Assembly: GCA_951406725.2 (NCBI GenBank)
Contig: OX597822.1
Span: 44,020,001 to 44,084,000, forward strand
Source: Octopus vulgaris
Lineage: Eukaryota
Length of the DNA: 64,000 nucleotides
Reading direction: 5' to 3'
Below the pieces are notes generated by a model, which worked only from the letters and a program-made list of their open reading frames with translations, was not told the origin of the DNA and ran no database searches. The translations under genes were made by a program, and so were the position numbers. Each line of letters opens with the position of its first letter. The stretch's first letter is position 1. Shown piece by piece: positions 8,181 through 63,433 of the stretch.

Positions 8181-8254
8181 CTGTAAATATATATATGATC
8201 GACCGCTAGCCATTAAGCATCTCCCCCCCCCTATTTGTTTATTTTCTCGTGTTC

Positions 8255-8290
8255 CTTTCTGTCGAAGAGCGTAGGCTCGAGACGCAAAAG
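8255..8290 (+). ncRNA. Degenerate minimal hammerhead motif, CUGUNGA family
   Basis: cttt-CTGTCGA-a-gagc(gtag)gctc-GAGAC-GCA-aaag; homologous to 20739-20776 but with core mutations. Confidence 0.5.
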
Positions 8291-8346
8291 ACTTTCTCAC
8301 CTTCCCGAGCGTGAAACTAATACACCTATTTGTTCTTTACACATAT

Positions 8347-8521
8347 GTGTGGCTGTGTGGTAAGTAGCTTACTTACGAACCACATGGTTCCGGGTTCATT
8401 CACACCGCGTGGCACCTTGGGCAAGTGTCTTCTACTATAGCCTCGGGCCGACCAAAACCTTGTGAGTGCATTTGGTAGACGGAAACTGAAAAAGCCGGTC
8501 ATATATATGTATGTATATATG

Positions 8522-10091: not shown

Positions 10092-10509
10092 TGTTATATA
10101 AATATTTGTTCTCTAACCGATAAATTAACTGCTGCTAACTATTAGCTGCAGGCTAGTTTTCTCGGGTCTCATCGCGCCAAAATTAGAGACATTTGAAATA
10201 TATATTTCAAATGTAATAGGCCGTACTCCATGCACGCAATATTTCGGTATCGTGTTGGCATTTAGTACAGCAAATTACATTTTATATGGGACCATGCTGA
10301 TGATGGCTGCACTTTTCCTTGCGGAAAATAACAGCCGAAACTGAATTTAGTACATGGGTAAATATTTATTTCGTATATTTTTCACTTGTTTATTGTTTTG
10401 GTTTTGTGTTGAGTTTGATCTGAGAACATGGACTTTTTGTGGAGAATGGCGATTTGACGTCTATATCTAGCATGTTGACTGTCCACTTTTTCGTGTTCAG
10501 TCCTTAATT

Positions 10510-20082: not shown

Positions 20083-20316
20083 AGAGAGAGAATTCGCAAA
20101 AAACAAAAGACGAAGACGGGTAGTGTAGTCAACAAACAGAAGTATTGGTTTAACGCTCGGGAAGTGAAAAAGTATTTAACGTTTCGAGCATGCGCTCTTC
20201 CACAGAAAGGAATACAGAAAGAAACAAGGAGAGAAAATACAGAAAGCGTAGTGGATAGCTATCTATCAAGCCAATGCCGCACAGAATGGTCACACAGGAG
20301 AAATAGGAAGAAGGGG

Positions 20317-20640: not shown

Positions 20641-20856
20641 AACGGGAAGCTTTATGAAAATAAACAAAAGACGAAGGCAGGTGGAATACAAACAAACAAT
20701 TGTATTAGTAAGGCGCTCAGGAATATAAATAAAACAAGTCTTTTACGTTTCGAGCCTACGCTCTTCAACAGAAAGATACACAGAAAAGAAACACGGAGAG
20801 AAACAAGGAGAGAAAAAAATGCGTGCAGAAGCTAGCGAATCAACATGGCGATTTGG

Positions 20857-20858
<2 letters not shown>
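20641..20858 (-). mobile_element. Short (TA)n-flanked non-coding element with CUGUUGA hammerhead
   Basis: (TA)n on both sides; its 3' half recurs almost identically at 63301-63397 (+). Confidence 0.75.
20739..20776 (-). ncRNA. 38-nt minimal hammerhead with A6U variant core
   Basis: UCUUU-CUGUUGA-a-GAGC(guag)GCUC-GAAAC-GUA-AAAGA; stem I 5 bp, stem II 4 bp, loopless palindromic ACGU stem III. Confidence 0.7.
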
Positions 20859-20894
<36 letters not shown>

Positions 20895-22146: not shown

Positions 22147-22192
22147 GGCACCTGATGAAGGCTGGAGGGTATATCAGCCGAAACGTTGTGTT
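22147..22192 (+). ncRNA. Minimal type I hammerhead ribozyme
   Basis: GGCAC-CUGAUGA-a-GGCUG(gaggguauau)CAGCC-GAAAC-GUU-GUGUU; canonical core, palindromic AACGUU stem III. Confidence 0.85.
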
Positions 22193-30470: not shown

Positions 30471-30685
30471 ATATATATATACACACACTCTGGCCTTCTT
30501 TCAGTTTCACTTTGACAAATTTAATCACAAAACTTTGGTCGGCTTGGGTCTATTGTCAAAGGCTCTCGTCCAAGGTGCTACGAAAATAGATAAAACTTCG
30601 TAGCATGCAGCCAGGCCAATATTTCGGACCGCTGAAACCTACAAGATTATTTTTTTCATTCTATCTAACTTTATTTTCTTTTATG

Positions 30686-30723
30686 ACTCTCTGTTGAAGA
30701 GCGTAGGCTCGAAACGCAAAGGA
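30686..30723 (+). ncRNA. Hammerhead motif, CUGUUGA family (mutated triplet)
   Basis: CTGTTGA-a-gagc(gtag)gctc-GAAAC-GCA; the downstream body resembles the 20083 copy. Confidence 0.55.
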
Positions 30724-30801
30724 CATTTTCATTTTCCCGTTCCTCAAACTATTACACTTGTTTGTTGTTCATACACCGGTCTTCGTCTTTTATTTATTTA
30801 T

Positions 30802-33181
<2,380 letters not shown>

Positions 33182-61992: not shown

Positions 61993-62497
61993 AATATATA
62001 TGTGAGTGTGTGTGAATGTATATATGATGGTAGCTGTCTACTCCCTATGCAGAGTCAGATCGCCTCTTATACCTTCATCTTAGATCCATCATGGCGTCTG
62101 ATGTGGCTTTTTCAACCAGACAATGTTTTGAAAAGACACGCACCTAGATTGCATATCTGATTTGGACCACCAAGGCCGCCGTTAGATCTGCAAACCTTAT
62201 GGCATACACTGCATTGAAACGTATCGAGAAGCGCAGGCTCGAAATGTCAGTGACTTTTCCATTCTTCGCGAGCGTTAAACTAATATATGTATGTGTGTGA
62301 GTGTGTGTGTGTGTGTGTATGTGTGTGCGTGTTGTGTATTAAAAGGAATATAGAAATATAATTGACATATAAATTTATTAACATTATAATATAAAATGAG
62401 TATATTGTAAAAAGATTAATATAGTATATAATGTATAACAAATAATTAAAAAATGTTTCGATTCATATCCACTAATGAATTTATAAAGTATTCATTC

Positions 62498-63063: not shown

Positions 63064-63395
63064 TGCTTAAAATCTTGTACATTCATTTATAACATACATA
63101 TGTACAATATTAAGTAGATATACGTATGGCATATACACGCGCGCTAACATATATACATGATTATTTTTATATTTGAATTATCATGATACTTATATTTATG
63201 TCTACATTCATAATATCCATAGAAATATAAATATTAGCTACCCAAACACACCTACATATACACCTACATACGTATATATATGCGTGGGTTTATATATATA
63301 TTGTTTTATTTATATTCCTGAGCGCCATACTAATACAATTGTTTGTTTGTACTCCCCCTGCCTTCGTCTTTTGTTTATTTTCATAAAGCTTCCCG

Positions 63396-63433
<38 letters not shown>

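Follow-up and report, generated by a model that had tools for sequence, protein, structure and literature searches.

A hammerhead-derived motif with U at core position 6 in the pLTR of a high-copy octopus Penelope-like element

Position 6 and the constraint on the motif

In the pLTR of a Penelope-like element of Octopus vulgaris, a hammerhead-derived motif carries U instead of A at core position 6, and this U6 is fixed through five successive subfamilies under a constraint that spares positions N7 and H17 only. The motif was identified in a window of 64,000 nucleotides (contig OX597822.1, positions 44,020,001 to 44,084,000), in which a sequence-only reading had described four diverged copies with the core CUGUNGA. 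A check of the sequence located the four cores where they had been placed, CTGTCGA at 8259 (+), CTGTTGA at 30691 (+), CTGTTGA at 20771-20765 (-) and CTGTGGA at 20205-20199 (-), all with U at position 6, a variable position 7 (C, U, U and G, respectively) and A-GAGC-loop-GCTC-GA thereafter.

A pattern of 30 letters in which positions 6 and 7 were left free matched the genome exactly 16,283 times, while its reversed form, used as the control, had no match, so the motif is not a product of chance. Among 100 matches listed of the 16,283, position 6 was U in 95, A in two, C in two and G in one, and all four bases were represented at position 7; with A6 fixed, the pattern matched 178 times compared to 16,283 (1.1%). 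U6 was likewise present in 75 of 78 copies not chosen by the motif and in all 30 copies chosen by the pLTR head. The genome-wide state of position 6 is U and not A, and the proposed variant core, which searches for CUGANGA would miss, represents the state of the family. The 27 aligned A6 copies were spread over five subfamily groups and mostly carried the N7 of their own group, a distribution that fits mutation after insertion. An apparent A6 subfamily (S1c, seven copies) was an artefact of A6-targeted sampling, its A6 majority being lost with untargeted copies, and was excluded from the final subfamily comparison. Two A6 copies on C4 (L088/L089) form an inverted pLTR pair 234 bp apart with C7 and a GAAG loop on a young-subfamily background; their 30-mer was found once more, on C6, and the pair may represent either a very small branch of revertants or a coincidence.

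The other core positions C3, U4, G5, G8, A9, G12, A13, A14, A15.1 and U16.1 were each retained in 76-78 of the 78 untargeted copies, and H17 was represented by A (33) or U (45) in these copies and never by G. Since position 6 departs from the A of the strict core consensus (PMC3088659), the motif should be termed hammerhead-derived.

To follow the motif through the subfamilies, a profile was matched to 1.49 Mb of fetched DNA; its 244 hits were reduced to 203 distinct near-full copies and aligned, and 198 of these were assigned to groups by a tree. The resulting ladder leads from the oldest subfamily (U7, 14.5% from its own majority) via C7, G7 and A7 to the youngest (U7, 1-4%), and N7 agreed with that of the nearest neighbour determined from flanks only in 140 of 154 copies, compared to 43% by chance. 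Between subfamily majorities the flanks diverge by up to 28-31%. Only N7 and H17 vary among the 36 motif positions, in contrast to 30 of 96 well-aligned flank positions (p=0.0014), a comparison in which the T-rich flanks align noisily and hold further invariant runs (one of 14 nt) and event numbers are small (3-4 for N7, 2-3 for H17). The motif with its stems is conserved above the flanking sequence, a point on which the sequence-only reading had made its proposal depend. Majorities were U, C, G, A, U, U at N7 and A, A, U, A, A, U at H17, with only A<->U exchanges at the latter. N7 and H17 are the two positions left free by hammerhead chemistry. In the untargeted copies alone, one of 34 constrained positions varied compared to 56 of 146 flank positions (p=2e-5), and this single position was a CpG-type change in a group of five copies. 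In contigs of four public runs with four organism labels, every listed difference of at least 5% within the 38 nt fell on N7, H17 or the outer stem I base, and none on position 6, in a table that is non-exhaustive and misses the known G7. At the level of single copies, decay was 2.7% in the motif and 6.3% in the flanks; this difference was rejected as a sign of selection on copies, because the flanks carry hidden subfamily structure.

The element and its copies in the window

The youngest subfamily (S1b) is represented in the window by a solo pLTR of 212 bp at 20641..20852 (-), flanked by (TA)n runs, with 8 nt of duplicated pLTR head at its 5' junction (20853..20860, -) that are private to this copy in comparison with 29 other loci. 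It contains a minimal type I hammerhead motif of 38 nt at 20739..20776 (-), identified by its sequence, with the architecture described in PMC4209133. On the same minus strand, the stem I 5' strand (20772..20776) can form five Watson-Crick pairs with the stem I 3' strand (20739..20743), and the core strand C3-U4-G5-U6-N7-G8-A9 (20765..20771, with U6 at 20768 and N7 at 20767) is followed by an extra A between A9 and G10.1 (20764), present in 77 of 78 untargeted copies. Stem II (4 bp, G10.1-C11.1) with its GUAG loop occupies 20752..20763 and is invariant across the subfamily majorities. G12-A13-A14 and the palindrome A15.1-C-G-U16.1 lie at 20745..20751 (ACGU at 20748-20745), the latter being predicted to form an intermolecular stem III according to the dimer model of PMC4209133. 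Hammerhead numbering places the predicted cut site between A17 (20744) and A1.1 (20743). The UCUUU/AAAGA stem I and GUA triplet noted earlier for 20776-20739 are both present, while the extra A and the ACGU palindrome had been absent from that description. Its claim of a kept GAGC/GCUC stem II also stands, but not that of a variable loop: GUAG is the majority in every subfamily, with its bases found in 75-76 of 78 untargeted copies per loop position, and the GCAU loop is a private decay of the 20205 copy. Family-wide, loop II varies no more than the core does.

The three other pLTR copies include an older one of the G7 subfamily (S3) at 20083..20275 (-, core 20205-20199) and two old decayed ones, at 8189..8368 (+, core 8259-8265) with A14G and U16.1C and, from the oldest group, at 30616..30817 (+, core 30691-30697) with U16.1C. 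Among the window copies, only the 20771 copy has an intact motif. Both additional fragments that had been suspected were recovered as genuine by blastn/nhmmer. The old one (62222..62296, +) is 5'-truncated and lacks the 5' core strand, stem II and the 3' core strand being all that remains of its motif, and the young one (63301..63397, +) consists of the 3' 97 nt of the pLTR (96.9% identity), is 5'-truncated without the hammerhead and begins 6 nt beyond the predicted cut site. A four-codon micro-frame (ATG, three codons, stop) is present at the pLTR head (20846-20832, -) and in all U6 subfamily majorities, although codons and stop (TAG/TAA) vary; it is not found in the sister lineage described below and is possibly an upstream ORF.

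A genome query with the 201 central bases of the pLTR gave 975 candidates, and the 40 of these that were scored included 39 other copies at 99-100% identity. Both ends of the pLTR were shared across 30 loci, mostly within (TA)n. Upstream of one copy the sequence continues into a GIY-YIG endonuclease that has a C-x4-C-x2-C linker and whose protein had 16,859 first-look candidates in the genome. With a strict pattern, the CUGUUGA motif was detected 258-891 nt downstream on the coding strand in 22 of 30 endonuclease loci, and the 212-bp repeat was located behind the RT-EN frame at 90-97% identity in all 20 loci fetched for long ORFs. A 1047-codon open frame at one locus (L120) contained RVT_1 at residues 415-604 (E=1.3e-7) and, C-terminal to this RT, a weak GIY-YIG match at residues 835-868 (E=0.007, below the cut-off). 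Another locus (L134) exhibited a pLTR-ORF-pLTR partial tandem with ATATAT directly after the upstream pLTR. The main ORF begins several hundred bases beyond the pLTR. With RT and GIY-YIG in a single frame and pLTR repeats, the element has the features of endonuclease-bearing (EN+) Penelope-like elements, and the window feature is a solo pLTR of such an element in sense orientation to the ORF. The amplified family that the sequence-only reading had supposed is the pLTR of an autonomous-type Penelope-like element, with the 16,283 exact pattern matches given above.

The translations had a C-terminal endonuclease, a CX2-5CxxC linker and a CCHH motif, which are the defining features of Neptune in PMC8557442. 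Judged from the order of the domains and from a by-eye resemblance to the alignment in that paper's supplement, Neptune is the probable clade, with Nematis as a less probable alternative. Likeness to the Neptune elements (Craig 2021, PMC8557442) extends from the single frame with RT, C-x4-C-x2-C linker and GIY-YIG with CCHH residues to the (TA)n target and the pLTR-ORF-pLTR partial tandem (L134). Naiad was rejected, as it needs an N-terminal endonuclease and GIY-YIG (835-868) here follows the RT (415-604). A non-LTR retrozyme, with tandem non-coding monomers and canonical hammerheads, was also rejected because the copies examined are dispersed solo pLTRs or ORF ends. The interval between endonuclease and pLTR is a long, length-variable pyrimidine-rich tract (L120 4650-5400, L011) into which the frame often reads. 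An initial impression that 28 of 30 copies were solo pLTRs was a selection effect, since genome-wide 1,279 of 1,889 copies continue upstream.

Sister lineages and known hammerheads

A sister lineage shares stem II but has a UCC loop. Its pattern with U4 had 3,283 exact matches, with A6 in 96 of 100 matches listed, and with position 4 free it had 11,417, with C4 in 74 of 100 matches listed. The approximately 8,100 sister copies without U4, mostly C4 (CCGACGA; e.g. G000 L046, L211 and L193), exceed the 3,283 canonical ones. An outgroup scan of 80 metagenome loci of related elements with positions 4 and 6 free yielded 12 motifs, 12 with A6 and four with C4. The presence of A6 in the sister lineage and the outgroup motifs indicates that A6 is ancestral and U6 arose once in this lineage. 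Read from these sequences, position 4 is released repeatedly in this Penelope group. By eye, the outgroup loci exhibited covariation in stem I (GCU/AGC vs UUU/AAA) and A-U vs G-U in stem II.

Compared to the minimal hammerheads of metazoan Penelope-like elements (Cervera and De la Pena 2014, PMC4209133), the octopus motif is alike in type I topology, a stem I of 4-5 bp, the extra base between 9 and 10.1, G10.1-C11.1, the palindromic 15.1-16.1, its location in the pLTR and the mostly solo copies. Extra base, G10.1-C11.1, palindrome, short stem I and sense pLTR position were all found here. In contrast, the descriptor and rows in the accessible part of that paper have A6, with U3-A8 as the reported core variant, while the octopus family has U6, and its stem II of only 4 bp is also unlike theirs. 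The phage Bcep176 A6C hammerhead (Perreault 2011, PMC3088659; Naghdi 2020, PMC7151607) similarly combines a natural substitution at position 6 with an otherwise kept core. However, it has C6 at a single phage locus, whereas U6 in octopus occurs in more than 16,000 copies with a subfamily history, and A6C has been assayed (slow in Mg2+, good in Mn2+) while the octopus A6U is known from sequence alone. Poseidon PAc (PMC11167929) is alike in a pLTR hammerhead near the RNA 5' end, an internal RT start and an AT-rich target, but belongs to another clade and its ORF start overlaps stem II, while in octopus the ORF start lies downstream of the pLTR, several hundred bases away. In the accessible parts of the literature compared, we found no report of a natural A6U hammerhead or of an octopus Penelope-like element hammerhead; Lunse et al. 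2017, the inactive-variant figures of PMC3088659 and the supplement figures of PMC4209133 may already include A6U. Of particular value are the family-wide fixation of U6, the change at N7 and H17 only, and natural canonical and U4C controls within one genome.

Cleavage or another role for the U6 motif

We regard it as an evenly balanced proposition that the U6 motif is an attenuated hammerhead, likely cutting slowly and as a dimer or with protein assistance. G8 and G12 are retained, and so are the C3-G8 and A15.1-U16.1 pairs. From the retention of catalytic G8 and G12 and of both pairs, combined with a substitution that would cost U-turn contacts, we infer a slow ribozyme; by analogy, A6U may remove U-turn contacts in the manner of the natural A6C hammerhead, which has low but real activity, cleaving slowly (PMC3088659) and at about 0.3/min in Mn2+ (PMC7151607). 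In line with this reading, the Poseidon hammerhead cut only with protein, uncut RNA being the main template (PMC11167929). Against activity, minimal hammerheads are slow even with a perfect core (PMC4209133), and when a different hammerhead was scanned by mutation, every single or double change of the CUGA turn apart from the C-G swap resulted in low activity (PMC9901934). Against the attenuated hammerhead as the best explanation also stands the invariance of loop II, which equals that of the core and is unexplained by catalysis alone.

Folding predictions for the U6 forms also count against it: they include a rod in which U6 pairs with A15.1 and the dimer palindrome is concealed, with a pair probability of 0.41-0.98 in U6 forms and 0.00 in natural A6 copies. 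The S1 double-hammerhead fold was predicted at 5.7-6.7 kcal/mol above two rods, compared to 3.7-11.3 kcal/mol for canonical sister forms; the two ranges do not separate, and the dimer-vs-rod energy was discarded as a discriminator of U6 and canonical motifs. Rods that conceal the core were predicted for the canonical sister motifs as well, in a different register, for which reason the idea that A6U and U4C reinforce one alternative helix was dropped. We consider it rather unlikely that A6U is a functional, selected variant, throttled by a weaker U-turn and the U6-A15.1 off-fold and switched on by dimerization, the element's own protein or another metal ion. If this were true, the A6U family would be the first hammerhead family shown to cleave with U6, and the parallel U4C would imply repeated down-tuning of the ribozyme among the most successful Penelope lineages.

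The strongest competitor, a real possibility although an unlikely one, is a non-catalytic motif that serves as an RNA signal, through a hammerhead-like or rod-like fold bound by the RT-EN protein of the element. Such a fold would account for the invariant GUAG loop, the predicted rod with its U6-A15.1 pair and the fixation of different U-turn changes in the two most abundant lineages (A6U with about 16,000 and non-U4 with about 8,100 exact copies), and it agrees with the 15 of 30 young copies that are solo pLTRs with an intact cut site. Cleavage was moreover dispensable in vitro for another Penelope-like element (PMC11167929), and Naiads thrive without canonical hammerheads (PMC8557442). However, a binding fold has no need to free exactly N7 and H17 while shunning G17, the N7 changes abolish the fourth rod pair in three subfamilies, and the predicted rods are not specific to U6, as such rods are predicted for the canonical sister motifs as well.

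It is quite improbable that the conserved 36 bp act as DNA, in the form of an internal pLTR promoter, or in translation control, with an ancestral hammerhead look. Promoters do reside in the pLTRs of Penelope-like elements (review PMC6765202) and half of the young copies begin at one point approximately 75 nt upstream of the motif, but the compensatory stem I changes in the outgroups (GCU/AGC vs UUU/AAA) and free positions that track RNA chemistry rather than a DNA motif argue otherwise. Highly improbable, too, is a U6 RNA that serves as substrate only and is cut in trans by the canonical A6 sister motifs via the shared ACGU palindrome. The sister core is canonical (96 of 100 matches listed), the palindrome is identical, and in the dimer the cut strand and the catalytic strand belong to different molecules (PMC4209133); this arrangement nevertheless leaves the conserved catalytic strand of the U6 family (C3, G5, G8, A9, G12-A14) unexplained and provides a cross stem I of merely about 3 bp. 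Neutral loss of A6 hitch-hiking in one master lineage, with a functionless motif since, is disfavoured to the point of being scarcely credible: the tree derives all subfamilies from one master line with U6 as a single event, yet 34 of 36 motif positions remained unchanged while the flanks diverged by up to 28-31%.

The ends of the copies were analyzed with regard to transcription and cleavage. Half of the 30 young copies chosen by the pLTR head (15) have starts clustered to within about 4 nt of a single point, and the remaining 15 extend upstream. Such clustering points to a 5' end of the RNA close to the pLTR head, although AT microhomology may contribute to it. In long copies the start point (L250-L279, window 20852) is preceded by TCAG, which we take to be an initiator-like sequence and a candidate transcription start. 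The 15 solo pLTRs span an intact predicted cut site, which suggests templates uncut there. The 5' ends of truncated copies were no more frequent at the cut site (seven, plus two ambiguous, of 35 listed loci) than at the control TA in loop II (seven of 35); in the sister lineage, canonical and U4C copies mixed, the corresponding number was three of 35 listed loci. All of these ends were counted by eye among the first 100 matches listed, and TA microhomology with the target confounds them.

Under the attenuated hammerhead, transcription would start near the pLTR head and place the motif approximately 75-115 nt inside the RNA, where two motifs may pair via ACGU and cut after H17. A6U would slow this cutting and leave most RNA uncut as RT template, while residual cutting might still be worth retaining. 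The endonuclease would nick (TA)n and the RT would begin at the pLTR 3' end, which in the tandem copy adjoins ATATAT; copying up to the RNA 5' end could then produce solo pLTRs like the window copy. The ATATAT after the pLTR end in the tandem (L134 7202-7190, -) matches the (TA)n target and is a candidate priming site for internal RT initiation.

Penelope hammerheads are poor cutters, and one was dispensable in vitro. Here three sister versions (canonical, U4C and A6U) on nearly the same scaffold of 37-38 nt have each been amplified thousands-fold, and the dated subfamily series displays the positions that selection kept unchanged. Should the U6 form cut, the consensus needs relaxing at position 6, and entire high-copy families are overlooked by CUGANGA descriptors. 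Otherwise the motif would be a plain example of a ribozyme fold retained in a non-catalytic role.

No hammerhead was present among 150 of 303 Rfam matches listed for the window or in the 212-bp pLTR (E<=10), a result that is uninformative because a canonical-core minimal motif at 22152 was likewise unmatched. This minimal hammerhead of a different family (CUGAUGA, 6-bp stem II) is located at 22147-22192 (+), with related motifs near 10297-10341 (+) and 28326 (-), and its family is probably Penelope-like.
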